DNA from: a virus
DNA length: 64,000 nt
IMG/VR virus record: IMGVR_UViG_3300018059_000546
Strand: one strand, 5' to 3'
Shown: piece by piece, positions 1 through 45,856 of the stretch
Numbering within the stretch: position 1 is the stretch's first letter
Layout: each line of letters opens with the position of its first letter
Notes under the pieces: model-generated
What the model saw: the letters and a program-made list of their open reading frames with translations, nothing else
What the model was told of the DNA's origin: nothing
Databases searched by the model: none
Translations under genes and position numbers: made by a program

Positions 1-3000
1 CTTCGGTTCGAGAGAACGATCAGGGGCAGACAAGTCGGGTCCCGTCCCGGGGGCGTATATCTTCGGTTTTTTCAGCTTCTTAGCCTTCAACCCTTCCATG
101 TTCTCCACGAGAACATGGTGCATGTGACGGTAGTGGACAAATGGTTTACCCTTTCCGACGAGATCTATCGAATCGAACGCCTCAACCTTGATGAGTCCGT
201 CAAGAACTCTCTTGTTGAACTTCGAATGCTTCCACTCACCGGTCTCTGTCCACAGGAGATCGTTCACATCCTTGTAGGGACGCAACCTTTCAATCTCTTC
301 GACAGCGGCTTCACCGACGCCTTTCAAGGATGTGAACGACGGATAGAAAGTGTCTCCGCTCTTAGAGAGAGTCCAATCGTTTCCCGATTCGTTGATATCA
401 ACCTTGCCGATCTTGTAACTGAGCTTACGAACGTCTGTAGAAGCTCTCGCCTTCGATTCGTCATCGTTGGACATCGATTGCAGGTATGTGCAGAGCCATT
501 CAGGTTCGTAGTACGTCATGAGCCACGCGCACTGGTAGGAAAGCACAGAGTACGTCAAGCTGTGGGAATAGTTGAATGCGTACTTTGCGAACGCTGCGAT
601 ATCGTCGAACAACTTCTGTGCGATTTTCTCTTCGAGACCGTTCGCAATCGCTCCTGTGACGAACTGTTTTCCAAGTTCGATAGCTTCTAGGGCCTTCGAG
701 TCGATCTTGTCGACAGACCTCTTCAGAAGAGCCTTGCGAAGTTTGTCGCAATCTCCATGTGACATTCCTGCGAGTTGGTTCGCAAGCTGGATGATCTGCT
801 CCTGATAGACGATAAATCCGAACGTGGTCTCCAACAAACTGTCGATGACAGGGTGGTCGTACTTCTTGATTTCTTTCTCTCGACGAGCCTTGATGATGAG
901 CTTGTCGACTTTCGCTGCGAGCGGTCCGGGACGGTAGATCGCAGTGGCCATCGAAAGATCCTGCACGTTTCGAGGAGCGAAATCGTGGATGTACTTCTGG
1001 GTCTGAGGATTTGTGTACTGAAAGATGCCGGCGAATCTTCTAGTTTCGAACACGTGGTCGTAGACCTTCGGGTCGGACATCTCTCCGAGAGCCGCAGGGT
1101 GCAAGTTCTTCTCGTACCATGACTTGATATCTTCCCATGTGGGATTCGGATTGTTATGATGCCTCCGCAGGATCATCCTGATAGTATCTTCAAGCATCCG
1201 CAAAGTCTCAATACCGAGAATGTCGCTCTTCACGAATCCAAGCGGTTCGAGGCAGTGCATGTTCATGCCCTCGGGCCAAGGAGATCTCACCTCTCCCTTG
1301 ATGAAGATCAGGGGCATCTTTTCATCGAGGTCCTCGCAAATGACGACGCCCGAGGCGTGCTTTCCGATCGCTCGATTCTGCTTGTACAAAATCTTGATTG
1401 GTGCAGCTACTTGCGGATACTTGCCCATGAAGTCCCTGAATTTCTCGGAGAACTCCATGCAATCGTCGAACTTCAAGGAAAACAAGCTCTTGTTTTCTCC
1501 GTCGTTCGCTTTTGGCATCACCTCTTCGAGAAGATCTTTTGTGACATCGTTGACCTCTTCAAAGTCAATTCCATGAAGTTTTGAAAGATCCTTCACCAGA
1601 GACTTCAACTGAAGCGTGAGGAAGTTAGAAATCGGAACGACGTTTCTGGTTCCTGCTTTGTCTCTCAGGAGATCGAGAAGCTTGTTTCTATCAGAAACGT
1701 CGTTATCGATATCGGGCGTGTCGTTACGAGCGGGACTGATGAATCGTTCGAACATCAATCCGTACTTCAGGGGATCGATCTGCGTGATTCCCAAAACGTA
1801 ATTGACCAACGAACCGGCTCCAGAACCTCGGCCTGCACCGACGAGCATGTTATCGTAGGCGATATCCATGATGATCTTGGTGAGGAGAAAGTACTGCGAG
1901 AAATTCTTGTCCTTGATGATCGTCAGCTCGTACTTGAGCCGCTGCATGTACTCCTTTTTGCCCCAGAGATTTTTCTGTTGCATTCCGGTCTTGCAGTTCT
2001 CGTACAACGCTTCGAATGGCATTTGCCCAGGTGGGACGACGAACGATGGAAGTTTAATTCCCGTGTCCATCTTGATCGGATTGATCATATCATGGGCGAT
2101 GTCGTGCGTACGTTCGATCGCAGCGCGGACAGTTTCATCATCGTAGAACGGCATACCATTACAGTACTCGTTGTACGAATCCCACATCTGCCCAGCATTC
2201 TTCGGGTACAGCTCGCACTTCAACGCTTCCTTGGACTTGGGAAGCATATCAGGATTGATCTCTTCGTATCGAAGGCGACCCAACTTCTTGTAGATCTCTC
2301 TTTCGAGCCACAGTTCAGGTCGGCAGTAGTGAGAATCAGCTGCGGCAGTGAGTTTGATTCCCGTCTTGTTAGACATCTCAATGAGAGCCCGATTGACAAG
2401 ATGTTGCGGAGCGAGTTTATTGAACTGCAGCTCGGCGAATACGTTTTCTTCACCGACAGCGTCAACGATGGGATCGAATGCTCTTGCGAGTTCTTCCTGA
2501 ACCTCTCTCATCTTGGACGGATCGTCCAACAGCTCATGTTTGAGCTCGTCGAAAGGAACACCCTGGAACTTATCTAAGGTAGCGTACGCTCCGAAACCAC
2601 CGATGCACGCCGAGGTCACGATGATATCTTCGCCGTGCTCTTTCAACATCTTAGCATCGATTCGAGGAAACCTGTACATGCCCTCGATGTTAGCTCTTGA
2701 AACTAGCTTGAAGAGATTTTGGCGACCCTTGTCACTCTTAGCGAGGAGCACCATGTGGTGGCGTCTATTGACAGGATCTCTCCACTTGGAAACGTTCTTC
2801 GTTTCGTCTTCGTTCTCTGTCGTAGAGGCGTCGCTCTCATCGGATTCTTTAGCAAGTTTCTTCGACTCTTTCTTCGCGTCCTTCTTAGCTTCTTCCTTCT
2901 CGAACTTCTGCTTGCGCCAGTCTTCGAGACTCGGATGGTAGTACGCCTCGCATCCTGCGATTTGTTTGAACTCCCTTCCCTTCTTTTTCAGATCTTCAGA

Positions 3001-3174
3001 CTTGAGATAAGCCTGCGCAAAGGAGTTACAATTCCCATGTTCTGTGAAAGCCATCGCATCCATCCCGTTTTCAAGACAGAAGTCGATGTGCTCCTCAACG
3101 GGCCCGAGCCCATCGCTGATCGAGGCATGTGTGTGGCTGTGGAGATTAACGAACCTCTTCGGACTATCGCTCAA
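1..3174 (-). CDS. dnaE: DNA polymerase III alpha subunit (family C), 3' end outside window
   Basis: Absent from the ORF track (no stop in window). Manual translation from TTG at 3174: PHP start FVNLHSHTHASISDG...TEHGN, GAGRGSGAGSLVNYVLGITQIDPLKYGLMFERF, catalytic PDIDND, FAKYAFNYSH; the last codons at base 1 are still open. Confidence 0.95.
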   Translation of the reverse strand, partial: MSDSPKRFVNLHSHTHASISDGLGPVEEHIDFCLENGMDAMAFTEHGNCNSFAQAYLKSEDLKKKGREFKQIAGCEAYYHPSLEDWRKQKFEKEEAKKDAKKESKKLAKESDESDASTTENEDETKNVSKWRDPVNRRHHMVLLAKSDKGRQNLFKLVSRANIEGMYRFPRIDAKMLKEHGEDIIVTSACIGGFGAYATLDKFQGVPFDELKHELLDDPSKMREVQEELARAFDPIVDAVGEENVFAELQFNKLAPQHLVNRALIEMSNKTGIKLTAAADSHYCRPELWLEREIYKKLGRLRYEEINPDMLPKSKEALKCELYPKNAGQMWDSYNEYCNGMPFYDDETVRAAIERTHDIAHDMINPIKMDTGIKLPSFVVPPGQMPFEALYENCKTGMQQKNLWGKKEYMQRLKYELTIIKDKNFSQYFLLTKIIMDIAYDNMLVGAGRGSGAGSLVNYVLGITQIDPLKYGLMFERFISPARNDTPDIDNDVSDRNKLLDLLRDKAGTRNVVPISNFLTLQLKSLVKDLSKLHGIDFEEVNDVTKDLLEEVMPKANDGENKSLFSLKFDDCMEFSEKFRDFMGKYPQVAAPIKILYKQNRAIGKHASGVVICEDLDEKMPLIFIKGEVRSPWPEGMNMHCLEPLGFVKSDILGIETLRMLEDTIRMILRRHHNNPNPTWEDIKSWYEKNLHPAALGEMSDPKVYDHVFETRRFAGIFQYTNPQTQKYIHDFAPRNVQDLSMATAIYRPGPLAAKVDKLIIKARREKEIKKYDHPVIDSLLETTFGFIVYQEQIIQLANQLAGMSHGDCDKLRKALLKRSVDKIDSKALEAIELGKQFVTGAIANGLEEKIAQKLFDDIAAFAKYAFNYSHSLTYSVLSYQCAWLMTYYEPEWLCTYLQSMSNDDESKARASTDVRKLSYKIGKVDINESGNDWTLSKSGDTFYPSFTSLKGVGEAAVEEIERLRPYKDVNDLLWTETGEWKHSKFNKRVLDGLIKVEAFDSIDLVGKGKPFVHYRHMHHVLVENMEGLKAKKLKKPKIYAPGTGPDLSAPDRSLEPK

Positions 3175-3425
3175 TTATTCTCTCCCAAAATTTCCCATCG
3201 TGTAGATTCACTGTGGCTGTCGTGAACATGGTACACCCTGCCCGACATGAACATGAAGTGATCTTCACCATCGCCCCCAAGGTACAGTGCCTCGAGCCCG
3301 CCTGCATGGATCAGATCAGTTGACCCGAATGTCTCTTGACGAGCAACCCACATATGACCTATCCTACAGCGTACTAGGTCTCCAGTACCTAGCTCATCCA
3401 AGTAGTAGACTTTTTTCGCCGCCAC
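3171..3425 (-). CDS. hypothetical protein
   Basis: 84-aa ORF; its stop overlaps the dnaE start (TTGA). Confidence 0.6.
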   Translation of the reverse strand: MAAKKVYYLDELGTGDLVRCRIGHMWVARQETFGSTDLIHAGGLEALYLGGDGEDHFMFMSGRVYHVHDSHSESTRWEILGENN

Positions 3426-3470
3426 ACTCTAAAGGTATGCTAAAAACGTCAAAACAACCGTCTTAAAGAA

Positions 3471-4484
3471 TCAGAAATTCTGATCGAGCTCGATCGAAAA
3501 ATAGTCGATCGTACGCCTGATTCCTTCTTCGAAGGAAATCTCCGGATTCCAGCCTAGAACTTCTTGAGCAACTTTGATCGTAGGATTCCTACGCTTAGGA
3601 TCGTCCTGTGGAAGCGGGAGATAGGTCACCTTCGAAGTGGAACACATCGTTCGAACGATGAACTCGGCAGCTTCTCCAATTGTTCTTTCTTGCGGGTTTC
3701 CAAGGTTGATCGGAAAAGAATGCGGTTCGTCCTTGTGGAGGTAAGAGATGATTCCTCGAACGAGGTCGTCCACGTAGCAAAAACTCCTAGTTTGGGTTCC
3801 GTCTCCGTAGATCGTGATATCTTGTCCACAGAGAGCTTGGACCACGAAATTAGAAACTACTCGACCATCGTCGACCTGCATTCGCGGTCCGAAAGTATTG
3901 AATATCCGAACGACTCGTACATCGTGCCCCCTTTGAAGATGTTCGTAGCAGATAGTTTCTGCGACGCGCTTCCCTTCGTCGTAATTCGCTCGCGGACCCC
4001 ACGTATTGACGTGACCCTTGTACGATTCCTCCTGCGGATGAACCTCAGGATCTCCGTAGATTTCGCTCGTAGAAGCGTGAAGAACTCTGGAACCCAGGGC
4101 TGCGAACTTCATCGCAGTTTTCGTGCCCACGTAGCATGTATCCAGAGTTCCCATCGGGTCTTTTTGGTAGGCGACTGGTGAAGCGGGACAGGCGAGATTG
4201 AAATATGCGAAGGGTGCTTCACCTCGAGTGAAAGCTAGAACCTTTTCAACCAGAGTGGGTGAACACACATTCTCTTGGATCGTCCACAGAATTTGTCCCT
4301 TCGCAGATGCGAGAATAGATGCTTCGTCAAGATTCTTCCATCGACCTGTGCAGAGATTATCCACGCAGACGACATCGAAACCTTGTTCTATGAGAGAAAG
4401 AGTCAAGTGACTGCCGATGAATCCGGCTGCGCCGGCGATGACCGCGATTTTTCTAGAACTCAAGATACCTCTTCGAGAAACCAT
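3471..4484 (-). CDS. uxs: UDP-glucuronate decarboxylase (UDP-xylose synthase), extended SDR
   Basis: GAAGFIGSHL, LACPASPVAYQ, HASTSEIYGDP, YDEGKRVAET, RIFNTFGPRM..DDGRVVSNF, QTRSFCYVDDL. Confidence 0.9.
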   Translation of the reverse strand: MVSRRGILSSRKIAVIAGAAGFIGSHLTLSLIEQGFDVVCVDNLCTGRWKNLDEASILASAKGQILWTIQENVCSPTLVEKVLAFTRGEAPFAYFNLACPASPVAYQKDPMGTLDTCYVGTKTAMKFAALGSRVLHASTSEIYGDPEVHPQEESYKGHVNTWGPRANYDEGKRVAETICYEHLQRGHDVRVVRIFNTFGPRMQVDDGRVVSNFVVQALCGQDITIYGDGTQTRSFCYVDDLVRGIISYLHKDEPHSFPINLGNPQERTIGEAAEFIVRTMCSTSKVTYLPLPQDDPKRRNPTIKVAQEVLGWNPEISFEEGIRRTIDYFSIELDQNF

Positions 4485-4957
4485 CTAGATCTCGATTCGC
4501 CGATGGATTTCATCTGTTCTCGAAAGATCTGTCCTCGAATCATGAGGAACACGTGCGAATCAGACGTACTCGGAACCGATTTGCGACCAACGCAAGTGAC
4601 AATTTCGCCCGCGACCAGCGTCTGCCGTTGAATTTCTATCGCTCCAGCAAATGGAGGGCAATCTTTGACCTTGTAGGAGTTACCCAAACGAAACTTTTGC
4701 TTCACATCTACATCCTCTCGAAGAAAATGAATAAGATTGTCTCTCTCACCATTCTTGAGCCTGACCATGGAGTTGCCGAAGCTCCCGTTCATGATGTTGA
4801 GGTAAGCTTCCAGGAAATCCTCGTCTGTGAAGTTGCCCTTCAGGATCGTCGCTATTTCCCTGGCTTCGGAACAGTACTCGTCGAAGGGAGCTCCCATGTG
4901 GATCAAACCCATGGGGTCGACCAACGCGATCGCTCGTTCAATCTTATCAGGTGTCAC
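4460..4957 (-). CDS. hypothetical protein (N-terminus resembles YugE/DUF1871-like DP.G....P.DEY motif)
   Basis: DPMGLIHMGAPFDEYCSEAREI; family call tentative. Confidence 0.55.
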   Translation of the reverse strand: MTPDKIERAIALVDPMGLIHMGAPFDEYCSEAREIATILKGNFTDEDFLEAYLNIMNGSFGNSMVRLKNGERDNLIHFLREDVDVKQKFRLGNSYKVKDCPPFAGAIEIQRQTLVAGEIVTCVGRKSVPSTSDSHVFLMIRGQIFREQMKSIGESRSRWFLEEVS

Positions 4958-4986
4958 AGACAGAATGTACTATGGTTCGAGCGGAA

Positions 4987-5568
4987 TTATCCGCCCATAC
5001 GTTGTTTCAACAGGTAGATTGAAGCTTCGTGGTTGTCAGCCAGACCCTGGAGGAAATTGTCCACCCCCAAAGAAAGGGTGCCGTTCGTTTCCATGCGCTT
5101 GTACAGAAGTTCGAGTATTCCGAGGAAGTGCATTTCTGCCTCGTAGGACCTCTGAGTTAGGTCGTTGGAGGTCGGCATTTCGGAGAGGTTGGAACACATG
5201 GCTTCTACAACGAGTGCTTCATGCGTCACCTGTTGCACGGGATGGATCATCATCATACTCGACGTGCCGATAGCTTTCTCTGCAACCTTATCGACTTCTT
5301 CATTCGTACTATTGTACAGACGTTCGAACAAAAGATGGTCACCGTAGAATGTATCTGCCGTCGCGGTCCAATGGCCAACCTGGTGAACGAAAGCCAGGGC
5401 TCTCACGCATGACAGAAGGATGGGAAGCTCGCAAGCCTCCGTACCATCGTAATCGACGATCATCTGCTCAAGAAGAGCTTCGTGATTTACGGACTCTGTG
5501 ACAATCTTGAAACTGAGTGTCTCAACGATCTTCTTAGAAGTATTTCGTGTACCATTTCGGGTCGGCAT
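4987..5568 (-). CDS. ferritin/Dps-like four-helix-bundle protein
   Basis: HQVGHW...FYGDHLLFERLY...EEVDKVAEK resembles the Dps ferroxidase pattern; start uncertain (5634, 5568 or about 5463). Confidence 0.75.
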   Translation of the reverse strand: MPTRNGTRNTSKKIVETLSFKIVTESVNHEALLEQMIVDYDGTEACELPILLSCVRALAFVHQVGHWTATADTFYGDHLLFERLYNSTNEEVDKVAEKAIGTSSMMMIHPVQQVTHEALVVEAMCSNLSEMPTSNDLTQRSYEAEMHFLGILELLYKRMETNGTLSLGVDNFLQGLADNHEASIYLLKQRMGG

Positions 5569-5923
5569 AATATTGCGCTTTCGTTTCCGGATCGGCTTCG
5601 CCGAACTCGTCCTGTTCCTTCTCGGCATGACCAAGTTCAGATTCTAGGTCTTCTTGGTCGATTTCGATTCCCGTCAACTTTCGTTGACGATTTGAGATGT
5701 CTGCGGTCAGCCTACGAATATCCGGATGTTCTTCTCTGGACCTAGCATCCTTGTAGGCTCGGCGGGTCATGTTTGTGAACTGATCACTGTCGAATTCGGC
5801 CTCAATGTCGTCGGGATCTGTCGATGGACGGGTGAAATTGACCATGCCCTCACCATCGTCCGTAGCGATCGGACCCAGTTCTAAAAGAGCCTGGACATAC
5901 TCTTTGATCAGGTCTCTGATCAC
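5534..5923 (-). CDS. acidic hypothetical protein with putative virion-targeting leader
   Basis: MIRDLIKEYVQALLE leader; GTGA overlap with upstream gene. Confidence 0.7.
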   Translation of the reverse strand: MIRDLIKEYVQALLELGPIATDDGEGMVNFTRPSTDPDDIEAEFDSDQFTNMTRRAYKDARSREEHPDIRRLTADISNRQRKLTGIEIDQEDLESELGHAEKEQDEFGEADPETKAQYYADPKWYTKYF

Positions 5924-6120
5924 TTCATCAACCCCATGGTCTTCAAAAAGTGGGAGATTTTCGAACGAGCATCGTCAGAAACCATCGTTCCTGGCTCATC
6001 CAGCATCAGAGAATCATCCGTTCCCTGCATCCAACGGTCATCCTTTTCTCGTTCGGATCTCTTCTTGGTTTCATCCAGGAGCTCTCTAAACAAGGAACGG
6101 AAGTTTTGACGGGTGCCCAC
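5920..6120 (-). CDS. small hypothetical protein (putative late gene)
   Basis: 66 aa; TACTTA motif 4 nt upstream of GTG. Confidence 0.65.
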   Translation of the reverse strand: MGTRQNFRSLFRELLDETKKRSEREKDDRWMQGTDDSLMLDEPGTMVSDDARSKISHFLKTMGLMK

Positions 6121-6134
6121 AATCTAAGTATGGA

Positions 6135-7079
6135 TCAAATGAGACCGAGTAGCGTATCGATGTAAGGATCAGAAGACTTCGCAGACGATTCCGTGTAACC
6201 GTAGGGTAAATCGTATTCCTTCGCCCTGGTGGTGCTGTACGACACTCTCATTTCTGAGAGTTCTGTCTCTTTCTTTTGGAGGCAGCCCAATTGCTCGCTG
6301 GTGAACACCTCGCATGCTATCACACCACCTCGAGGGGGCCCCACATGGATAAAACGCGACAAGTATGTCTCGGCCCTACAGACAGCCCTGAATGAAGGGT
6401 TGTATTCCTTGTCGAACTCTTGTAGGGTGCTCTTCGTCTGGAGCACCAGAGACTTCCCGTGCTCGATCCCCTTGTCTGCGACAGTGTTTAGGTCCGAATA
6501 AAGTCGCTCGCGGATGGCGACGTCGATGGTGTAGTAGCCCTTTTTGAGGTATTTGGACACCCGAGACATGAAAAACGGACTATCTCCGTTAAGAAGGCTC
6601 AATTTCTTTTGTTCGCAAAGGGCTGGTACAGCCTTGTGATACCAAAAGCCCTTTCCGTCGAAAGCTACGGCGCAATTCGTGAAATCGAACTTCGAAATGA
6701 TCTCGACGGGAGTTCCCGTTCGGAACATGATGACCTGCAACTGCGGGCCACCGTCGGTGATATCGAGATCGATCGCATTCCTTCCGAAGGAGGGCCGGAA
6801 AGAAATGTTCCGATCCACGGCGGCAGTTGACAGGTAGACGTCGAGAGATTCTTGATTCGGGAACCACAGATCGACGTCCTTCCACAATCCGTAGCGAATC
6901 GAATTTCGATTTTTTCCTGTGGTCCTAGCTTCGAGTAGAGAAATGGCTGCGCCACCAGCGATGACAGCTCCCAAAGAAATAGCGAGGCGGATCATGTTGG
7001 CAGTAGTCTCATGCCTCGAAAAAGTATCAAGCATGGACAATAGAACTGTTTCATCGGGAAGAAATTCGTAATCGCTCAC
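6135..7079 (-). CDS. nucleotidyltransferase-like protein (Pol-beta superfamily, CCA/poly(A)-polymerase head-like)
   Basis: VIAGGAA...KDVDLWF...LQVI...FDFTNCAVAFDG...RVSKY pattern. Confidence 0.6.
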   Translation of the reverse strand: MSDYEFLPDETVLLSMLDTFSRHETTANMIRLAISLGAVIAGGAAISLLEARTTGKNRNSIRYGLWKDVDLWFPNQESLDVYLSTAAVDRNISFRPSFGRNAIDLDITDGGPQLQVIMFRTGTPVEIISKFDFTNCAVAFDGKGFWYHKAVPALCEQKKLSLLNGDSPFFMSRVSKYLKKGYYTIDVAIRERLYSDLNTVADKGIEHGKSLVLQTKSTLQEFDKEYNPSFRAVCRAETYLSRFIHVGPPRGGVIACEVFTSEQLGCLQKKETELSEMRVSYSTTRAKEYDLPYGYTESSAKSSDPYIDTLLGLI

Positions 7080-36739: not shown

Positions 36740-36974
36740 GTTTCTTCGCCTCTCGTGAAACTAAAAGTGATCTGATCTCCTGCTTTATTTCAGGATCTTC
36801 CGTGGCCCTTTTAACGAGTTCTTCAAGGGGAAGAACAAAATTTTCAACGAAGGACTTCACGATTCCGTTGACTTTTTCCTTCTCTTCTTCGGAGAGTTGT
36901 TTGTTAGCTTCAGAGAGTAGAGGATCATTAGAGATCTGCTCTAGTATGCTTTCAACGGTTTGTTTTTTCATCAA
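36726..36974 (-). CDS. hypothetical protein
   Basis: 82 aa, helical, coupled to tape measure gene. Confidence 0.65.
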   Translation of the reverse strand: MMKKQTVESILEQISNDPLLSEANKQLSEEEKEKVNGIVKSFVENFVLPLEELVKRATEDPEIKQEIRSLLVSREAKKHESE

Positions 36975-39900
36975 CGATTCCTGATCTTATCTCGAAGTTC
37001 ATCATCACCGATTCCGAGAGACGACTTGATGGATTCTTTGATTATACTCTTTGTGCGCAGAACAAGAGCCTCTTCGAGTTCTTCTGCGTTCATGACGATC
37101 TTCAGATCAAGATTGATCTGAATTCCCTTGTTCGTGATGGTGTACTTGTCGTTTCCGCCGAGGCCCGCATTCTTCGCGAACTTGGAGAGGTTCTTAGAGA
37201 CAGAGATTCGAGTTGCATCTCCCGAAGCTAGAATGTTATCCAACTCTCTGACCGATTGAATGATATCTTGCGTCGCTTTGATAGTAGGGGCGAGCCGAGC
37301 TTCGATGTCCGCCCCAGACGTCTTTAAACCCTCTGAAAGCTTTGTCATCGTAGCATTGAGCTCGGTCACACGATTCAAAAGACCAGTATTGATCTTGTCC
37401 ATGTTGATTGCATCGAGCTTAGCTCCGGTATCATTGATAGTTTTTTGGATGTCCATCTTCTGTAGTTCTTGCAGCGCTTTCATGCCTTCGAGGGTCGCGG
37501 TTGCTTTCATCATTTTGTCTGCAGGGACGTCTTCTGGACCCATCGGGGTGACAGCTAGTTTCTTTGGAGCGACATCTTCCCTAATACCGCTATTAGCTTT
37601 TCCTTGCGCAAGTTTCGTAGCATCTGCAGCTTGTTGTTCGACACTCTTCTTATCGCTGCCAGAACCGAACTTCAGCATACCCTTGATTTTCTCAAATGAT
37701 GCCATCAAGGAAGGAGCAAACTTACTGATTATTGCACCTGGGATCGCCATGAGCGCGCTGATGAGAAGATTCCACATACCCTTGGTAATATCTTCTACCA
37801 GTCCTCCAAAAGCTTTCAAAAGCCATATCCCGAGAGTTCCTACAAGCACTAAGAGAGATGGAATGAGTTTTGTCCATACGGCGAAGAACATTGCTTTGAA
37901 CGCACCCCACAACGGACCACCCATGTTAGTAATAGATTGCCATAGCGCAGGTTTTACTTTTGTCCACACACTACCGCTGGCAGTATCACTCAAAGAATCA
38001 TAGAGGAAAACAGACAATCTGTCTATCGCTGGAACGATCCAATTGATGAACGCGGTCGGAAGTTCCATGAAGACCATGCGAATGTTGTTGACAGCCATCT
38101 TGAATGCATCTGCCAAGATGCTTCCGATACTCTTTCCAATGCCATCGATATTGCCGGACAGAATGTTCCTGATGAGGTCACCAATGTGGGTAAGAAAATC
38201 GAACTGAATCGTGAGACGTTCTTTCATCACCGCACCAAGAGATGGTCCAAAAATCTTGTCAACTTGTTTGAACAGATTGTCCGTGAATTTCGCGAAACTC
38301 TTTGCCATTCCGTATGCGGCTTCGTCAGTAACTGTTCCGAATGATAGCAGCTGCACGATGCCTGCAAGAGACGAACCAATCTGTTTTTCGACCTTGCCAC
38401 CGATGGCCGACGTGTCAGCAACGAGCTTGTCCTGGAATTTTTCGACACCCTTGGACATTCCGACACCGGCGACACCGACAGCGACAAGAAAAGCTGCAGC
38501 TGCAACGTAGGGATTACCGAACAGACCTGTCATTAGCTTCCCACCGATGGGGGCTTTCCCTGCGAGGCCGACAGCAGCGTCGCCCCCTAATTTGCCAGCA
38601 CCGAACAACGTGCTAGTGATCGTGCTCGCAAGTCCACCGGCGACACCCCGAATCAACGTTGGAGCCATGAGCATTCCGAACATAGCTATCCCAATGGGAG
38701 CAACGATCTTGAGGAATGCTGGGCTGGTGACCCACTTCTTGACAAGTTGCCACACACCTCCGAATGCATCGGTGATCGCTCCCCACAGTTTTGTCCAAAG
38801 CGCCCTATCTTTTACAAGCTCGACAAGAGGTTCGATGACCTTCATGAAGCCGCTTTTAGCACCGTCAGCACCTGATGCGAACGCAGCTTCGAGCGTCTTA
38901 GGATCCTTAACATACGCTTTGATGAAAGCACCGATTTTGTGAAGACCTTTGGTAAGTTCTTCGATGACAAATTTCAGCCCATTCGCGAACATCTTTGCAA
39001 GATGACTGAAGAATGTTTTGGCTCCCGATGCAATTCCAGTTGCCCCTCCTCCTGTGAAGAATTTTCCGAACGTAGCTTGAAGATTCTCGACGAATCCACG
39101 CACGTCAGCTGTTACGAACAGTGTCTTGAACGCAGCTTCGATTCCGCTGAGGACCTTACCGAAGCCGTCGAACGAATGGGTGATGGACTTGAGCATCGGA
39201 GTCGCACCCGGAAAGAGGTTGATGAATGCTTTTCCGACACGAACACCCATGTACATCGTCTGTTGCAGAGCATTCCGCAACGTCAGAATCATTTCGACAA
39301 ATGCGGGAGAACTCTTGATTCCGATTTGGAACCCATGGAGGAATTGTTCAACGAATCCTCCTTTGAACATCTGTCCCGTCATGACAACGCGCTCGATGGA
39401 CGCTGCAAGTTTTTCCATCGCTTCAGCCTGACGTAACGGAGCGTTTTCAGCTTCTCCAGCTTTCTTCTTGATCTGATCTAGGGAAATTCCCTGGTTCTTC
39501 GTAGAGAAAGCTAACTGGGCTGTCGCTTCATCGAGATGAGTTGTGTTCGCCAAGAGTTTAAGCTCTTGACGTGACATATTTTCCGAGGTCTTGCCCGCAG
39601 CTGCCATCGACTTACGAAGCATGTCGAGTTGGTCAGCAGGATTTTGAGCTGACATCATTTTGAACGCATCGACGGACGTTCCGAACGCCTGGGAGAGCAT
39701 AGCGCTGTTCGTCGCCGCGTCCTCGAAGGTATCGAACGCGTCCATCATCCCAGTCAGGCTCTTGATTTCGATGCCGAGCTTACGTGTGTAGACAGAAGCG
39801 ATCGTCATCTCTTTTTGGGTGATGGATCCGAAATGCTTGACGTCCTTGACCATGGCGGCGACGTCTTTTGCCAAGAGCTTCTGGGACATTCCAAAAGCTT

Positions 39901-40807
39901 CACCCATCTGCAGAGAATAGTTCGCGACTTTGAGGAATTGTGTCTGCCAGCTCGTTCCGAAGATCTTCGCTCGATCGAGCATGGACTTGATCTGGTCGTC
40001 AGCGACACCCAAACCTTTTTGTAATCCTATGAATGTTCCGGCGTCCGCAGCAATAGCACTACCGAACTCGTGGAACTGTGGCCCAGCTGCCTTGGCGACC
40101 GCTGAGAAGTGCTCTAACTGCTGGGCAAAGGTTCCCAACACTCTAAAGGTAGAAAGTCCCGTGCCAGTGATTCCAGCCTGTGCTCCCTTGAATGCACCAA
40201 GGACATTCTTAGACACGTCCGACTTGAAGTCTCCGGACTCTTTTCTCAAATTTTCAAGCGCTTGAAGAAACGCGGAGTCGACCGGAAAGTCAGTCGCCAT
40301 GTCGATAAGACCACTAAAGATCTTCAGAGGAATTGACGCGATCGACTTACCAATCTTGAAGACTCCACTGGCAAATCCCGTTGCCATCCCTATGGCAGAA
40401 GCTCCGCCGGCGACGATGTTCTTGAAACCCTGAACAAGTCCGTTCAAAGCACCAGCAGAAGCACTCTTGAGAGCGGGAAACTTCGTTGTAAGCAACTTCA
40501 TCCGCTTGTCAACGTCGCTTATTCCCTTTCCGGCTCCTTTGGTGCTAGTTCCAACAGCAGCCATGGCTTTTTCAGCTTGACTACCAGCTTCTTCGGACCT
40601 ATCCTTGAAGTCCTGCATCGCCTTAGAAGCTCCTGCGAGCTTTTCACCGATTTCTTCAGGTTTCATTCCCCCGACGATAGTAGCAATTTGAGTCGCCAGT
40701 TCGAGTTGGTTCCTCATCTCACGCGTTACCGCCGCAGCGAGGACTCGCCTTTCGGAGAACAGCTTATTGAACTGTTCAACTACCTTTATGTTGTCTATAT
40801 CAGCCAC
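36971..40807 (-). CDS. tail tape measure protein
   Basis: 1278 aa, Ala/Gly-rich helical with hydrophobic segments; downstream of tail chaperones. Confidence 0.85.
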   Translation of the reverse strand: MADIDNIKVVEQFNKLFSERRVLAAAVTREMRNQLELATQIATIVGGMKPEEIGEKLAGASKAMQDFKDRSEEAGSQAEKAMAAVGTSTKGAGKGISDVDKRMKLLTTKFPALKSASAGALNGLVQGFKNIVAGGASAIGMATGFASGVFKIGKSIASIPLKIFSGLIDMATDFPVDSAFLQALENLRKESGDFKSDVSKNVLGAFKGAQAGITGTGLSTFRVLGTFAQQLEHFSAVAKAAGPQFHEFGSAIAADAGTFIGLQKGLGVADDQIKSMLDRAKIFGTSWQTQFLKVANYSLQMGEAFGMSQKLLAKDVAAMVKDVKHFGSITQKEMTIASVYTRKLGIEIKSLTGMMDAFDTFEDAATNSAMLSQAFGTSVDAFKMMSAQNPADQLDMLRKSMAAAGKTSENMSRQELKLLANTTHLDEATAQLAFSTKNQGISLDQIKKKAGEAENAPLRQAEAMEKLAASIERVVMTGQMFKGGFVEQFLHGFQIGIKSSPAFVEMILTLRNALQQTMYMGVRVGKAFINLFPGATPMLKSITHSFDGFGKVLSGIEAAFKTLFVTADVRGFVENLQATFGKFFTGGGATGIASGAKTFFSHLAKMFANGLKFVIEELTKGLHKIGAFIKAYVKDPKTLEAAFASGADGAKSGFMKVIEPLVELVKDRALWTKLWGAITDAFGGVWQLVKKWVTSPAFLKIVAPIGIAMFGMLMAPTLIRGVAGGLASTITSTLFGAGKLGGDAAVGLAGKAPIGGKLMTGLFGNPYVAAAAFLVAVGVAGVGMSKGVEKFQDKLVADTSAIGGKVEKQIGSSLAGIVQLLSFGTVTDEAAYGMAKSFAKFTDNLFKQVDKIFGPSLGAVMKERLTIQFDFLTHIGDLIRNILSGNIDGIGKSIGSILADAFKMAVNNIRMVFMELPTAFINWIVPAIDRLSVFLYDSLSDTASGSVWTKVKPALWQSITNMGGPLWGAFKAMFFAVWTKLIPSLLVLVGTLGIWLLKAFGGLVEDITKGMWNLLISALMAIPGAIISKFAPSLMASFEKIKGMLKFGSGSDKKSVEQQAADATKLAQGKANSGIREDVAPKKLAVTPMGPEDVPADKMMKATATLEGMKALQELQKMDIQKTINDTGAKLDAINMDKINTGLLNRVTELNATMTKLSEGLKTSGADIEARLAPTIKATQDIIQSVRELDNILASGDATRISVSKNLSKFAKNAGLGGNDKYTITNKGIQINLDLKIVMNAEELEEALVLRTKSIIKESIKSSLGIGDDELRDKIRNR

Positions 40808-41910
40808 TTCGCAGTATACTTACGAGTAAGAATAACTAGGCTCTTAGTGTTCACATACAGATATCGTATTCGTGATAGTTCTTCGAAGGTTCGGCTTAAG
40901 AAGCTCGCTTCTTCTGTCAACTTCGTCTGGAACTATGTCAATAAACTCTCGTTCGAGAACATCAAACAACACGGCCGATTTCTCTCGACGTACGATGTAA
41001 ATTACTATTTGAATGGATGTTCAAAAGGTTTAGAAATTGGATCAAGTTCTATACAAGAAATTGCACGTTTTTACGTGCAAACTAGACAACAGTTCAAGAA
41101 ACGAAAACTCTCGTGGAGGAGCGCTAAACGTTCTCTTGGGTGGGTTCCACTTCGACACGACGGGTTTAAACTAAAGAACGATACCGTTCGCTATTGTGGA
41201 CATGACTTCAAACTCTGGAAGCATCGAGAGCTTCCGCAGGGAGCTAAGATAAAGACAGGATCATTCGTGCAAGATGCACGCGATCGTTGGTACTTGAATG
41301 TTTCCTTCGAAGTTCCCGATGTTGAAGTGCATGCGCTTCCTAGAACCGAGGTCGGCATCGACCTCGGTATCAAGAACCAACTGACCCTCTCGACGGGTGA
41401 GAACTTCACCCGCGGCAGCGAGACGAAGAAGTTCGCCGTAGATCTTGCACATGCCCAAAGGGCTCGCAAGAAGAAACGTATGAAAGCTGTCTCCGCCAAG
41501 GCGGCGAACCGTCGCTCCGATTGGACGCATAAGGTGACGACGGACATCGTCCGTCGCTTCGCGACGGTCTTCGTCGGTGATCTGAAGACGAGCGAGCTCG
41601 TCGCAAAATCTTCGTTATCTAATTTCTCGAGCCTCTACGATGCTTCCATCGGAAGCATCAAGCACTGCTTGAAATACAAAGCCAAGAAACTTGGCGGTGC
41701 TTGCTATGTCGTGAACGAGGCGTATACTTCCGTCACTTGCTACTTCTGTGAAGCCCGAAGCGGGCCGACAGGCAAAGGTGGGCTGGCGATAAGAGAGTGG
41801 ACGTGCCAAAGTTGCGGAGCGGTGCATCACCGCGACGTGAACGCCGCCCGGAACATTCTCCGTCGAGGGCATTCGACGCTGCAGAGGAGCCTCATAGGAG
41901 GAGATGCCAC
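40790..41910 (+). mobile_element. non-autonomous tnpB-only (IS1341-like) element at the tape-measure 5' end
   Basis: TTTAT immediately left of 40790, CCAC at 41907-41910, imperfect direct repeat GTTGTC.A..TC.GC at 40790 and 41911. Confidence 0.55.
40817..40838. promoter_or_regulatory. overlapping oppositely oriented late-promoter-like motifs for tnpB (+, TACTTA 40817-22) and tape measure (-, TAGTTA 40838-33)
   Basis: Both match the TA(C/G/T)TTA motif seen upstream of other structural genes, each about 25 nt from its GTG. Confidence 0.5.
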
Positions 41911-41929
41911 GTTGTCGACGTCTGCTTAG
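40847..41929 (+). CDS. tnpB: TnpB RNA-guided endonuclease (IS200/IS605 family), solo
   Basis: TYRYRI...VNFVWNY, RuvC-I VGIDLG, VFVGDL, VNEAYTSVTC..C, WTCQSCG..HHRDVNAARNI; start set at GTG 40847 because the longer ORF overlaps the tape measure gene; no tnpA nearby. Confidence 0.93.
   Translation: MFTYRYRIRDSSSKVRLKKLASSVNFVWNYVNKLSFENIKQHGRFLSTYDVNYYLNGCSKGLEIGSSSIQEIARFYVQTRQQFKKRKLSWRSAKRSLGWVPLRHDGFKLKNDTVRYCGHDFKLWKHRELPQGAKIKTGSFVQDARDRWYLNVSFEVPDVEVHALPRTEVGIDLGIKNQLTLSTGENFTRGSETKKFAVDLAHAQRARKKKRMKAVSAKAANRRSDWTHKVTTDIVRRFATVFVGDLKTSELVAKSSLSNFSSLYDASIGSIKHCLKYKAKKLGGACYVVNEAYTSVTCYFCEARSGPTGKGGLAIREWTCQSCGAVHHRDVNAARNILRRGHSTLQRSLIGGDATLSTSA
41780..41926 (+). ncRNA. predicted TnpB omega/reRNA with guide at 41911-41926
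   Basis: Expected position overlapping tnpB 3' end; CCTC-ATAG-GAGG hairpin 41890-41901; ...GATGCCAC boundary at 41910; 5' limit is a guess. Confidence 0.5.
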
Positions 41930-41936
41930 TTGTAAT

Positions 41937-42182
41937 TTACAGCGGCCAGACGCATCCAAAAACGTGCTCGAACGTACGAGAACAGGCATGCTTGCGTCTC
42001 AGAGCCTCTGTGATCTGTTCCAGTGACTTCGAATCGTCTAAAAGGGTGGATTCGAAGATCTTTGTGGCAGCAACAACGTCTACCAAAGCCTTCAATTCGG
42101 GTTTGGTTCCATGAAAGTTGTACGCAGGTCGTTCCACTGCGCTCTCGATTAGGGCTTTACGAAGTAGAAAACGATCCTTCAT
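41937..42182 (-). CDS. hypothetical tail-region protein
   Basis: Start set at MKDRFL with TATTTA just upstream. Confidence 0.65.
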   Translation of the reverse strand: MKDRFLLRKALIESAVERPAYNFHGTKPELKALVDVVAATKIFESTLLDDSKSLEQITEALRRKHACSRTFEHVFGCVWPL

Positions 42183-42199
42183 GGGCATAAATACCTGGT

Positions 42200-42481
42200 T
42201 CAAGTGAATCGACGTAAACGGGCAGGAGTTTGGGCTCGGTGCTTCCCAGTCATCGCTGCGTAGGTCGGATCATTCTGGTGGTTCATGGCCTTAGAAGGTC
42301 CGTTTCCTGGTTCTCCCTCTCCGGCCGAGCCTTTGATTTCTTTGGCAACTCTTTCAATGAACCATCGTTTGTAGACGATCGGAATGTTCAGGGCCTCGAT
42401 GTACGTGAACCCCAAATAATACATGAGAAGAAAAATCGGCTCGAGGAACACCTGTTCCCGGTTTTCGTAGGTCAACGGGAA
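42200..42481 (-). CDS. tail/baseplate assembly chaperone C-terminal part (gp51-like), probably made by recoding
   Basis: LTYENREQVFLEPIFLLMYYLGFTY.EALNIPIVYKRWFIERV; +1 frame relative to upstream chaperone; no SD. Confidence 0.65.
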   Translation of the reverse strand, partial: FPLTYENREQVFLEPIFLLMYYLGFTYIEALNIPIVYKRWFIERVAKEIKGSAGEGEPGNGPSKAMNHQNDPTYAAMTGKHRAQTPARLRRFT

Positions 42482-42512
42482 CGGGTGAACTACTGCGACA
42501 GAAGGGCCTTCC

Positions 42513-43334
42513 TCACCCCTTGGGAAAGAAAAAGCCCACGCCAACCGGCACGCTGACCTCCTCAACAGCGTCGCATTCGCTGCAGTCGATCACCTGAGTC
42601 ATATCGATCCCAGGTTCACACTTGGACATGTACTTTCTGAGTGCATCGGCATCTCGAACAACCATGCTGTTGATAGCGCGGATGATCTCGAGCCTGTTGT
42701 CATTTCCATCGATGGCGACAATCGTCTGAGCTAGCCGAGAAGTCACGGTCGTTTCGATGTCGTGATTGAACTTGGCCTTCTTCTGATTCTGGGTCAAAAG
42801 CATCGACTCCTCGTCGGCACCGGTCAAGAACTTGAACTGGACCTTCTTTTTCGACTGGGGGAGTTCGAATTCGAAGAGATTCAATCCGACTCCTACAGGG
42901 GTGGCTTCCAACTCTTTAATCGGCAACTCGTCCAGTTTGAACGTATGGGTCTGCTTGTGTCCGCACTGGGGACACTCGACAGTGGCTTCGTATTCTGGTC
43001 CGTAGCTCATAACACGAAGGGCGACCAGAAGAGCGTAACGATCTCCTGAAAGCATCTTGTCGACAGGAATAGACTGGTCAACGAGACAGTTCTTGATGAG
43101 GTGAGTGACGACCGTTCCCTTCTTGATGAGAGCACGAGACATGAGGATATCCTCTTCTCGGGTTGTCATGGCGCGAATTTCGACCTGCGCTCTCATGTGG
43201 AGAGGAGATCCTTCCGGGTAAGCCTTTCCTCCCGAAGGGAGCGGAATCGATTCAACAGGAACATCCACAGCCATCTGCTGCTTGATAAGATTCCCGCCAT
43301 GCTGAAACACAGGATTTCTAACGTCACCGCTCAT
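42513..43334 (-). CDS. baseplate hub/tail assembly chaperone (T4 gp26-like)
   Basis: PLPSGG..Y, IRAMT.REEDIL, GDR.ALL.ALR..SYG, CPQC, CSEC, ends GFFFP. Confidence 0.8.
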   Translation of the reverse strand: MSGDVRNPVFQHGGNLIKQQMAVDVPVESIPLPSGGKAYPEGSPLHMRAQVEIRAMTTREEDILMSRALIKKGTVVTHLIKNCLVDQSIPVDKMLSGDRYALLVALRVMSYGPEYEATVECPQCGHKQTHTFKLDELPIKELEATPVGVGLNLFEFELPQSKKKVQFKFLTGADEESMLLTQNQKKAKFNHDIETTVTSRLAQTIVAIDGNDNRLEIIRAINSMVVRDADALRKYMSKCEPGIDMTQVIDCSECDAVEEVSVPVGVGFFFPKG

Positions 43335-44324: not shown

Positions 44325-45089
44325 ATGGTCATTTCGCCCAAAAAAGATAACGCTCGAACAGGTTCAGAATTCGCCAAGAGCATCATGGGAATAACGGGAA
44401 TCCCACGAGAGAACGCGATTCTCATCGAGCTTATAAATGGGAATGTGCCTGATTTCATTCGCGCGCGCGTGCACGTAGCATCGATGAATGAGAAATTAGG
44501 ATTCAGCGTCACTTTTACCGTAATTCCACGATTTTTGGCGATTGGTACGAATGAGGATCATTTCTACGTGCCCATGGCTCCCACCACAGCCCAAAAGGTC
44601 GCGGATTTGTACGGGGCCATGCTTCCAACGTACAAGATGGTTCAGGACATCTTCACGTTCGCAAGTTGGAAACAGATCGCCGTTCCCTTGCAGTTCGGAC
44701 CACTGATGACGTCGACTGAATGGTACAAGAGGCACAACGATATCGTGGTGAAGCAACTAGAAAATGTTCCGTTTCCAGCTCTGTGTGACGGTTACAAGAA
44801 GAACGTCATCATCAGCAAGAACATGGAGACGAAGCCGAATTCCGTCTTCATCTACGGCTGGATGAAAGATCAATCGGGTAACTTTTGGCAGGGGCTTCCG
44901 TTGTACCCGGGACATTCGAGAGACTACGCAGATTATAGCCACTCTGTTCGACTTGTAGATCGAAAGATGATACTCACAAATCTAAACGACGAAACTTCTA
45001 TTGAAGTAGACGCATACGATATCTTGAAAGATCCAGCTCTCTGCATTCTCCTCAGCGCTGAGGGTCCGCTATCCAAACCGTACTACTGA
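44325..45089 (+). CDS. conserved-looking enzyme of unknown function, candidate cell-wall hydrolase
   Basis: Well-formed ORF (FLAIGT.ED...PM...TAQ..AD...LPT, GYKKNV, IYGW, H..DYADYSH.VRLV, LLSAEG); TATTTA 5 nt upstream. Confidence 0.6.
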   Translation: MVISPKKDNARTGSEFAKSIMGITGIPRENAILIELINGNVPDFIRARVHVASMNEKLGFSVTFTVIPRFLAIGTNEDHFYVPMAPTTAQKVADLYGAMLPTYKMVQDIFTFASWKQIAVPLQFGPLMTSTEWYKRHNDIVVKQLENVPFPALCDGYKKNVIISKNMETKPNSVFIYGWMKDQSGNFWQGLPLYPGHSRDYADYSHSVRLVDRKMILTNLNDETSIEVDAYDILKDPALCILLSAEGPLSKPYY

Positions 45090-45856
45090 ATCTGTACATG
45101 CGGCCATGTTGTTCCGTTTCTAATTCGTCGAACCATCCGATCATTGATTTCGAATTTTCTAGCGACATCCAGATAATGCATTCCAGAAGCTAACATTTTC
45201 TTGATTGCTAGAACAACCTCTTCTGTGAGTTTAGCAAAATGAGATTTTGTTCCCAAATGCTTCCCTTTTTGTTGTAAGCTCATCTGCTGACGTTGCTCAG
45301 GTGTTCGTTTTTGTCCACGAAGTTTCATTCCAACGAACTTCGCAATTTCAGGGTTTTTCATATGATGAAGATGAGAACGTGAGCGCTTTGTCGCCGACGC
45401 TTTCTCATATGCACTCTTGTCATGCGGTTTTCGGTTCGGGTACTTCTTCCCTTTGTTCTTGCCCATCATCGACGCAGACTTCCTAGCTTTAACCTCAGGA
45501 CGGTGAGATGGATTCAAAGCTCCCTTCATTTTCTCAGCTCCTCTCCGTTGTGCTTCCTCCGAAATTCTACCTCCAGAGCCGCCCTCTCGTCTGTTGTAAC
45601 CGATCTTCGGATTCATCGCATCGAAATGATCGACCCAGTACGTCTCAGCATCGAGTGAGTCCTTCTCAGTCGTGAAGCTCTGGAAGATGCGAAATTCGAA
45701 GTGCTTATCTCCGTATTTTCTCATCGCAGAGTACAATGCTTTGACATGACCTCGGCGAGCATTTTCGCGGTGATCTTTCCAGCGATCGATCGGATCATTA
45801 GCTTTACCAACGTAGAGTTTGCCGTTGATTCTATTGATGATTACGTAAACGTGCAC
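45083..45856 (-). CDS. GIY-YIG homing endonuclease with NUMOD3-like repeats and HTH
   Basis: VYVIINRINGKLYVGK...RW..H, LYSAMRKYG..HF, GYN...GG, AKLTEE.V..I...TW.HV. Confidence 0.92.
   Translation of the reverse strand: MHVYVIINRINGKLYVGKANDPIDRWKDHRENARRGHVKALYSAMRKYGDKHFEFRIFQSFTTEKDSLDAETYWVDHFDAMNPKIGYNRREGGSGGRISEEAQRRGAEKMKGALNPSHRPEVKARKSASMMGKNKGKKYPNRKPHDKSAYEKASATKRSRSHLHHMKNPEIAKFVGMKLRGQKRTPEQRQQMSLQQKGKHLGTKSHFAKLTEEVVLAIKKMLASGMHYLDVARKFEINDRMVRRIRNGTTWPHVQIQ

Follow-up and report, generated by a model that had tools for sequence, protein, structure and literature searches.

How does a transposon-type nuclease gene come to lie at the very start of an essential-looking phage gene, and what might it do there? 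The question is raised by a 64,000-nucleotide stretch of viral DNA (IMG/VR record IMGVR_UViG_3300018059_000546; hereafter the window), in which a tnpB gene stands back to back with a long open reading frame (ORF) resembling those for phage tape-measure proteins (TMPs). An earlier interpretation made from this DNA alone (the sequence-only reading) had proposed that the guide of the TnpB nuclease is a copy of the neighbouring gene start, and that the element is a candidate for RNA-guided homing or for the exclusion of competitors, with immunity of its own genome. Here, we compare the locus with tnpB-free relatives and with related elements. The explanation that we favour, with moderate rather than high confidence, is that of an RNA-guided homing or competitor-cutting cassette which carries a rescue patch for the gene that it interrupts.

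An interrupted gene start and its empty counterpart

As judged from sequence comparison, the locus holds a TnpB/omegaRNA cassette (40790-41936) without transposase and without left end, placed after codon 6 of the TMP-like gene and oriented against it. Its tnpB gene (40847-41929, + strand) encodes 360 amino acids (aa) from a GTG start, and the reading frame runs on through the right end of the element and the guide to a TAG stop codon at 41927-41929. The TMP-like ORF (36971-40807, - strand; 1278 aa, GTG start) points the other way, with a spacer of 39 nucleotides (nt; 40808..40846) between the two divergent start codons. From codon 7 onwards (36971..40789, -) this ORF is collinear with its tnpB-free relatives. 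The left junction is formed by TTTAT (40785..40789, +), the probable transposon-adjacent motif (TAM), and next to it lies a patch (40790..40807, -) which supplies a new start and codons 2-6 (GTG GCT GAT ATA GAC AAC, or VADIDN) and keeps the ORF open, as VADIDN-IKV.... At the other end of the cassette, the conserved 3′ part of the predicted omegaRNA scaffold (41793..41910, +) is followed by the guide position (41911..41925, +), which doubles as a relic of TMP codons 2-6 in their original form (reverse complement GCA GAC GTC GAC AAC). Alignment to two relatives, L023 and L024, shows that an 11-nt filler (41926..41936) stands in place of the native 23-nt spacer and ATG; the filler contains the tnpB stop codon and reads TAA on the - strand at the position of the old ATG. 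Homology to the relatives restarts at the stop codon of the small gene upstream of the TMP-like gene (41937..42203, -), which has 88 aa here and 81 aa in the relatives.

The empty site is preserved in tnpB-free relatives. L023, L024 and L028 share the gene order of the window without tnpB: the 81-aa small gene, then 23 nt, then the TMP ATG. In L023, the closest of these relatives, the gene starts ATG GCA GAC GTC GAC AAC ATA AAG, and on the tnpB strand its empty site reads CTACCTTTAT, directly followed by GTTGTCGACGTCTGC and CAT, which is TTTAT and a 15/15 match to the guide. The same strand of the window reads CTACCTTTAT, then GTTGTCTATATCAGCCAC, tnpB, GATGCCAC, GTTGTCGACGTCTGC and TTAG, and the match in L023 falls at the exact base where the homology of the window breaks. 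Relative to L023, L024 and L028, the 1.1-kb cassette is the only extra DNA in the window. The TMP-like genes of the window and L023 have a nucleotide identity of 0.97 in the first 60 nt after the patch and 0.865 over 1.5 kb.

The likeness from which the sequence-only reading had started is that between the guide, GTTGTCGACGTCTGC (41911-41925), and the self site in the window, where TTTAT is followed by GTTGTCTATATCAGC (40785-40804). The coordinates and letters that it had given for the tnpB/TMP layout, the hairpin, the guide and the self site were all confirmed. Guide and self site are identical at 11 of 15 positions, including all of the first six bases, and on the coding strand the guide reads ADVDN and the self site ADIDN. 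A match of 11/15 is common by itself: the guide has 31 other sites of at least 11/15 in the 64 kb (about one per 4 kb), and shuffled guides find ∼4.9 such sites per 20 kb. It is its position, and the comparison with L023 (15/15 at the break point, with TTTAT), that mark this match as non-random. It had also been predicted that tnpB-free relatives would fit the guide better than the window does and would keep a TT(T/G)AT motif, which is what L023 displays (TTTAT and 15/15, versus 11/15 in the window). At the orthologous site, L024 and L029 match 41911-41925 at 13/15 and L028 at 12/15, and the motif ahead of the site in relatives scoring 12-13/15 is TTTAC, TTGAT or TTTAG. The L024 allele has TTTAC and differs from the guide at positions 4 and 7, and the L028 allele has TTGAT and differs at positions 1, 9 and 13. 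No tnpB was found at this site in any of ∼70 metagenomic TMP relatives.

The native relic matches the tnpB-free relative better than its replacement does. Compared with L023, the relic has 0/15 changes and the patch 5/18 (13/18 identical: ATG>GTG, GCA>GCT, GAC>GAT, GTC>ATA), all of them synonymous or V-to-I. Residues A2 and N6 of the TMP head are invariant across the TMP family. TTTAT precedes both the L023 target and the self site of the window, and the patch mismatches the guide at positions 7, 9, 10 and 13. The 57 nt upstream of the tnpB GTG consist of the 39-nt spacer and a diverged copy of TMP codons 1-6 (VADIDN versus MADVDN). That the old gene start became the guide, as previously suggested, is true of codons 2-6, which are the relic; the old ATG and the native spacer were instead replaced by 11 nt. 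The re-spelled VADIDN head likewise agrees with the suggestion of a recoded N-terminus, with the reservation that 'recoded' may equally mean imported. The patch may have been imported rather than mutated in place, because GTG starts and ADIDN heads are found naturally in TMP relatives and the best match of the patch to any sampled natural allele is 12/15.

The 39-nt spacer probably carries promoters for both TMP and tnpB, as suggested by two hexamers within it, TACTTA at 40817-40822 (+), facing tnpB, and TAGTTA at 40833-40838 (-), facing TMP. The TA[CGT]TTA class is ∼10-fold enriched before genes (∼2.0/kb in the 45 nt ahead of 78 crude gene calls, versus 0.19/kb window-wide), and may be a promoter or regulatory motif of the phage. 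A derivation of the spacer (40808..40846) from a native TMP spacer was considered but found no support, as alignments to ten relatives were not better than shuffles (z ≤1.7). Four terminator-like hairpins lie antisense to tnpB on the - strand (41061-41080, 41176-41189, 41681-41695 and 40974-40989), where 1.5 are expected. If they are real terminators, read-through from upstream late genes would be stopped, leaving TMP reliant on a promoter within the 39-nt spacer.

The description of the long ORF as tape-measure-like is a lead taken from its gene context and its neighbours in a protein atlas. It is preceded by a baseplate-hub-like gene and two small ORFs, and the atlas neighbours are the tape-measure families PF10145/PF20155 at 0.95-0.96, likewise a lead. 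The ORF has no Pfam or PHROG match. Full-length relatives of the protein were found at 81, 72 and 60% aa identity (P0122-P0124); IMG/VR yielded no relative of it, and a megablast comparison of 10 kb of the window with GenBank phages returned no match. By base composition, the cassette is not clearly foreign.

Cassette ends, guide RNA, nuclease and sister loci

The right end is defined by three sister cassettes (L025, L026 and L027), whose TnpBs share 76-79% aa identity with that of the window and whose flanks are unrelated. Collinearity of their DNA with the window extends to GATGCCAC/T and is lost directly after, which places the end between 41910 and 41911. Two pairs of more distant elements, L014/L022 and L001/L003, each present in two contexts, diverge at the same point. 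Together with the covarying helices of the scaffold described below, these comparisons uphold the right end as originally placed. TTTAT stands at the left-end boundaries of the related elements L014/L022, L015, L013 and L006, and we regard it as the TAM of the family because the homology of the two-context relatives begins with it.

At the left, the related elements have TTTAT followed by CC..CGTAAAAC-hairpin-GGATATAAG, 100-190 nt before tnpB. The CGTAAAAC...GGATATAAG motif is absent from the 57 nt between TTTAT and tnpB in the window, in agreement with the earlier view that the element has no left end, and no sequence upstream of the start codons is shared among the four sister cassettes. The cassette junction lies exactly 3′ of TTTAT, but the first 18 nt of the target are present a second time, in diverged form, beside the element. 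The claim that no tnpA is nearby is correct in the sense that the cassette is the only extra DNA compared with L023, L024 and L028 and contains no tnpA; no scan for Y1 transposases was made over the remaining window, and the genome beyond it lay outside the search. By its sequence, the cassette is not a canonical element of the IS200/IS605 family of insertion sequences (ISs), as its left end is absent and it includes no tnpA. Without both, movement by peel-and-paste would be impossible, and RNA-guided copying would be the only evident route of spread.

The last 120 nt have the conserved sequence and structure of the expected omegaRNA scaffold. Its predicted helices are a long-range pairing of GAGAGTG (41793-99) with CATTCTC (41854-60), a hairpin at 41861-41878 and a terminal hairpin at 41890-41901, formed by CCTC (41890-93), ATAG and GAGG (41898-41901); GATGCCAC ends at 41910. 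RNAalifold analysis of 15 elements found 12 pairs with compensatory changes, among them 5-6 per pair in the 41861-78 hairpin. The terminal hairpin, already noted by the sequence-only reading, covaries in the four sisters (CCTC/GAGG, CCCG/CGGG, CCGCT/AGCGG and CCTCA/TGAGG). No Rfam family matches positions 40000-43000 at E ≤1. Inside tnpB, ∼180 nt before the right end, a sigma-70-like TTGCTA-16-TATACT (9/12; 41701-41728, +) could possibly be a separate omegaRNA promoter, judged by its match to the consensus.

TnpB itself looks functional, with an intact ORF, conserved residues and the signature of purifying selection. It matches PF07282 (Cas12f1-like_TNB, 68 bits) and PF01385 (OrfB_IS605, 45 bits), both above cut-offs, as well as phrog_506 and the structures of ISDra2 TnpB (E 1.6e-17); an exact look-up of the protein of the window found it not on record. 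In the alignment to ISDra2, D172 corresponds to D191 and D330 to D361, and the position of the RuvC-II glutamate is occupied by G244. Invariant in 19 homologues are D172, G244, E291 (in NEAYTS), the zinc finger cysteines C298/C301/C320/C323, and D330. In the rearranged RuvC-II type (RIIr), an alternative glutamate is predicted to complete the active site (Altae-Tran et al., PMC10691335), and the G244/E291 arrangement here has the form of such a site. Catalytic residues have not been lost in the way seen in TldR, as D172, E291 and D330 are all retained. Between the four sister cassettes, the ratio of non-synonymous to synonymous substitution rates (dN/dS) is 0.15-0.22 at a dS of ∼0.8-1.1, from which we infer that selection preserved TnpB while the cassettes became distributed over different loci.

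One of these loci can be compared directly with the window. L025 (with the same arrangement as L100-L104) comes from a related phage, and the genes flanking its cassette are orthologous to window genes at ∼1150-6140. Its tnpB separates two genes which, in the window, L105, L108 and L109, have an overlap of 35 nt. The L025 guide, the 16 nt after the right end (CACTTCGGGTCTGCAT), finds its best match anywhere in the window at the orthologous site, an uninterrupted allele at 5553..5568 (+; 14/16) whose orthology is given by the homology of the flanking genes. The reverse complement of this site, ATGCCGACCCGAAATG, opens a 193-aa gene which begins within the final codons of the preceding gene. Uninterrupted alleles match the L025 guide at 14/16 in the window and L108 and at 13/16 in L105 and L109, whereas the allele of L025 itself is synonymously re-spelled to 10/16, with the gene overlap undone. 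On sequence grounds, the principle recurs at this locus: the guide fits the uninterrupted allele, and the self allele is re-spelled. The part of tnpB coding for the REC/WED domains is the most diverged between window and L025. A search for the L025 flanks in IMG/VR found only relatives at 34%.

In the window, the gene overlap spans 5534-5570 (-); the upstream gene, of 129 aa, ends ...YYADPKWYTKYF*, and the ATG of the 193-aa DUF5856/ferritin-like gene lies within its TAT TAT GCC codons. The L026/L110 cassette stands head to head with an aminotransferase gene. For L026 and L027, an IMG/VR scan, a search of representatives and a contig look-up for cassette-free alleles gave only the cassette-bearing L110 or relatives of 29-36% identity, so that a patch of MEV for MTKVS in L026 is a guess. 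ENA sample ERZ27253378 contains L024, with its empty TMP site, together with L102 (an L025-type cassette) and L110 (an L026-type cassette), and several sister cassettes, each at its own locus, may possibly be carried by a single phage population or genome.

A predicted cutting and rescue cycle and its rivals

The favoured explanation, an RNA-guided homing or competitor-cutting cassette, can be put as a sequence of steps. TnpB would be expressed from the spacer, and the omegaRNA would carry 41911-41925 as its guide. In a co-infecting relative with an unbroken allele, the complex would cut 15-21 nt from TTTAT, at the TMP start codon; this is the distance from the TAM at which ISDra2 TnpB cuts (Karvelis 2021, PMC8612924). 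The break would then be repaired from the carrier genome, homology arms being provided by the TMP body and the small gene upstream of it, and the cassette would be copied in (homing); alternatively, the rival genome would be lost (exclusion). The carrier would be spared by three mismatches in the TAM-proximal 12 nt of its own site. For ISDra2 TnpB, double mismatches within positions 1-12 abolish cleavage (Nakagawa 2023, PMC10097598), from which self-immunity of the carrier may be argued by analogy only. Related modes of spread have been considered before: TnpB-dependent, TnpA-independent spread of an IS among plasmid copies was shown experimentally (PMC11870625), and 'non-restorative homing' into co-infecting phages is a theoretical possibility that has been put forward (PMC13565253). 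We found no description of such phage TnpB cassettes in the literature. The interpretation offered by the sequence-only reading is supported in all of its structural predictions, and the cutting, self-immunity and homing that it proposed are, in our judgement, probably right as well.

Several observations weigh against a role in homing or competition. The identity of the guide with the uninterrupted allele is automatic in any IS200/IS605 insertion and alone shows no homing role; what sets this locus apart is its rescue patch, the lack of a left end and of tnpA, and the existence of the sister cassette. A perfect target was found in only one sampled relative, L023; in the others the site has 2-3 mismatches or the TAM is altered. 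Statistically, the patch shows only a modest excess of divergence (p ∼0.007-0.03 for at least 5 changes in 18 nt, given a 7-10% background). The RuvC-II glutamate of TnpB is replaced, and the alternative-glutamate site in this clade is only predicted. Our expectations for the RNA ends, the TAM and cleavage are carried over from ISDra2-type enzymes of only ∼25-30% identity. Finally, the L025 guide is the reverse complement of its target in the phage, with TGTAC and not TTTAT at the TAM position, which a simple insertion fails to explain; inversion after an antisense insertion, or an altered TAM preference, are possible explanations.

Some of these points are shared by a more modest explanation, in which the cassette is the passive relic of an IS1341/IS605-type insertion at TTTAT with TnpA supplied in trans, the gene start was duplicated by chance, the left end decayed, and TnpB has no role beyond that of a stranded IS copy. 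The geometry of TAM, element and flank is exactly canonical, as such an origin would have it, the relation between guide and target follows automatically, and a single genome with the insertion was found. We nevertheless consider it unlikely, if worth keeping in mind: tnpB is intact and, across four cassettes in separate locations, under purifying selection (dN/dS 0.15-0.22), a left end shared by the four sisters is absent, and the 15-nt relic is perfectly kept while the adjoining native spacer and ATG were replaced. The L025 guide, moreover, is not the collinear flank and yet fits the local uninterrupted allele. Much the same evidence as for homing would serve the proposal that TnpB is purely a weapon, which destroys co-infecting relatives with an unbroken allele, while the cassette is rarely or never copied and persists by benefiting its phage. 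One carrier among ∼70 relatives sampled, and the diversity of target alleles in relatives, would suit this proposal. Sequence cannot tell it from homing, but the homology arms come within ∼25 nt on each side of the predicted cut, so repair from the carrier should copy the cassette, and we hold a weapon without copying to be improbable.

The self site invites a further explanation, since it overlaps the TMP start, ∼20 nt from the divergent promoter region, and repressors are known among phage TnpB relatives that have lost nuclease activity: like TldR, TnpB/omegaRNA might bind its own TTTAT plus 6-nt seed without cutting and tune TMP or tnpB. This regulatory alternative, also raised by the earlier interpretation, found no support. 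The catalytic residues D172, E291 and D330 and the zinc finger are invariant, only 6 contiguous nt of the self site pair, with mismatches 7, 9 and 10 in the region that ISDra2 needs for the heteroduplex, and a perfect external target exists in L023; a regulator of this kind is very improbable. Least of all can the resemblance of the DNA after tnpB to the TMP start be put down to chance. Even with an 11/15 match occurring about once per 4 kb in the window, that notion is refuted by L023, with 15/15 at orthologous codons, the exact break point and the family TAM in front, and has practically no claim left. An IStron was also considered and rejected, as there is no Rfam group I intron match in 40000-43000 and the gene is restored by its duplicate head.

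Returning to homing or competitor cutting, a wider claim may be ventured for the lineage, one that could go either way: the transposase-less TnpB cassettes would act in nature as an RNA-guided gene drive of the cut-and-rescue type in large groundwater phages, each cassette bringing a working replacement for the gene piece that it displaces and a guide directed at the uninterrupted form of its locus. The guides would have been retained or re-acquired under selection, a suggestion made because in one sister cassette at least the guide has ceased to be a simple flank in collinear order, and the diversity of targets in relatives would reflect an arms race.

Parallels with known systems and genomic surroundings

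TnpB is currently viewed as a helper that restores the IS after excision by TnpA and, more recently, as a drive among plasmid copies. The present locus suggests a third life style independent of TnpA, in which a free-standing cassette of lytic phages would serve RNA-guided homing or competition. An essential structural gene may be tolerable as its site because a replacement head is supplied, which is also predicted to be invisible to the cassette's own guide.

Like the TnpB/omegaRNA system of ISDra2 (PMC8612924, PMC10097598), the cassette has a nuclease of the same protein family, a predicted omegaRNA made of the tnpB 3′ end and the right end, a predicted guide of ∼16 nt after the right end and a T-rich 5-nt TAM at the left junction, and its target would be the element-free site. 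It differs in having neither tnpA nor left end, and hence no peel-and-paste and no 'restorative' role after excision, and in the replacement of the RuvC-II glutamate by glycine with an alternative glutamate (the rearranged type, PMC10691335). It also lies in an essential-looking phage gene for which it brings a replacement head, and it would target a co-infecting phage, not a sister chromatid.

In layout, the closest resemblance discussed here is to the mORF 'gene hybrids' of fungal mitochondria, described for atp6 of Allomyces macrogynus and for atp6, atp9, cox2 and nad3 of Glomus (PMC3630166). In these, as in the cassette, a nuclease gene within a conserved gene is accompanied by a divergent replacement end, and the native end lies downstream, near-identical to that of nuclease-free relatives. 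The hybrids use protein-guided LAGLIDADG or GIY-YIG enzymes and replace the C-terminus, whereas the cassette is predicted to use RNA recognition with the relic itself as guide, replaces the head with start codon and spacer, and carries its nuclease gene antisense. The parallel is an analogy of layout, not homology, as TnpB is unrelated to LAGLIDADG or GIY-YIG enzymes.

In function, the closest parallel would be with the free-standing homing endonucleases SegF, SegB and Mob of T-even phages (reviewed, as intronless homing, in PMC13565253). Their genes lie between conserved phage genes; they cut the allele of a related phage during co-infection, with self protected by target differences, and flanking markers are co-converted. 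The cassette would resemble them in these respects, but its specificity would come from the guide, 15 nt copied from the target, and not from the protein, and self would be told from non-self by a split target and a re-spelled copy. With IStrons (IS605/IS607 with a group I intron, PMC10690162), the cassette shares a TnpB element inside a gene that is not killed by it; it has no intron, and the gene is made whole at the DNA level by the duplicate head, not by splicing. If the proposed mechanism is true, the cassette would be an RNA-guided counterpart of the phage Seg/Mob endonucleases and the fungal mORF gene hybrids, and a natural example of the cleave-and-rescue logic of synthetic gene drives. 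The system is directly testable, with one guide, a perfect natural target (L023), a predicted immune allele (self) and two intermediates (L024 and L028). Its TnpB, moreover, is compact at 360 aa, with a rearranged active site and a TAM that is probably TTTAT.

Elsewhere in the window, a GIY-YIG endonuclease gene (45083-45856, -; PF01541, E 6e-14) is syntenic with GIY-YIG genes in L023 and L024. The L027 guide has a 14/16 match within it, at 45754 (-), with no TAM and no flank homology, and the match is probably due to chance. The proteins of the window are found on a 168-kb contig, the L028/L108 contig measures 348,904 bp, and a contig in the P0248 cluster reaches up to 350,418 bp; with contigs of ∼350 kb among the relatives, this phage group may belong to the 'huge phages'.

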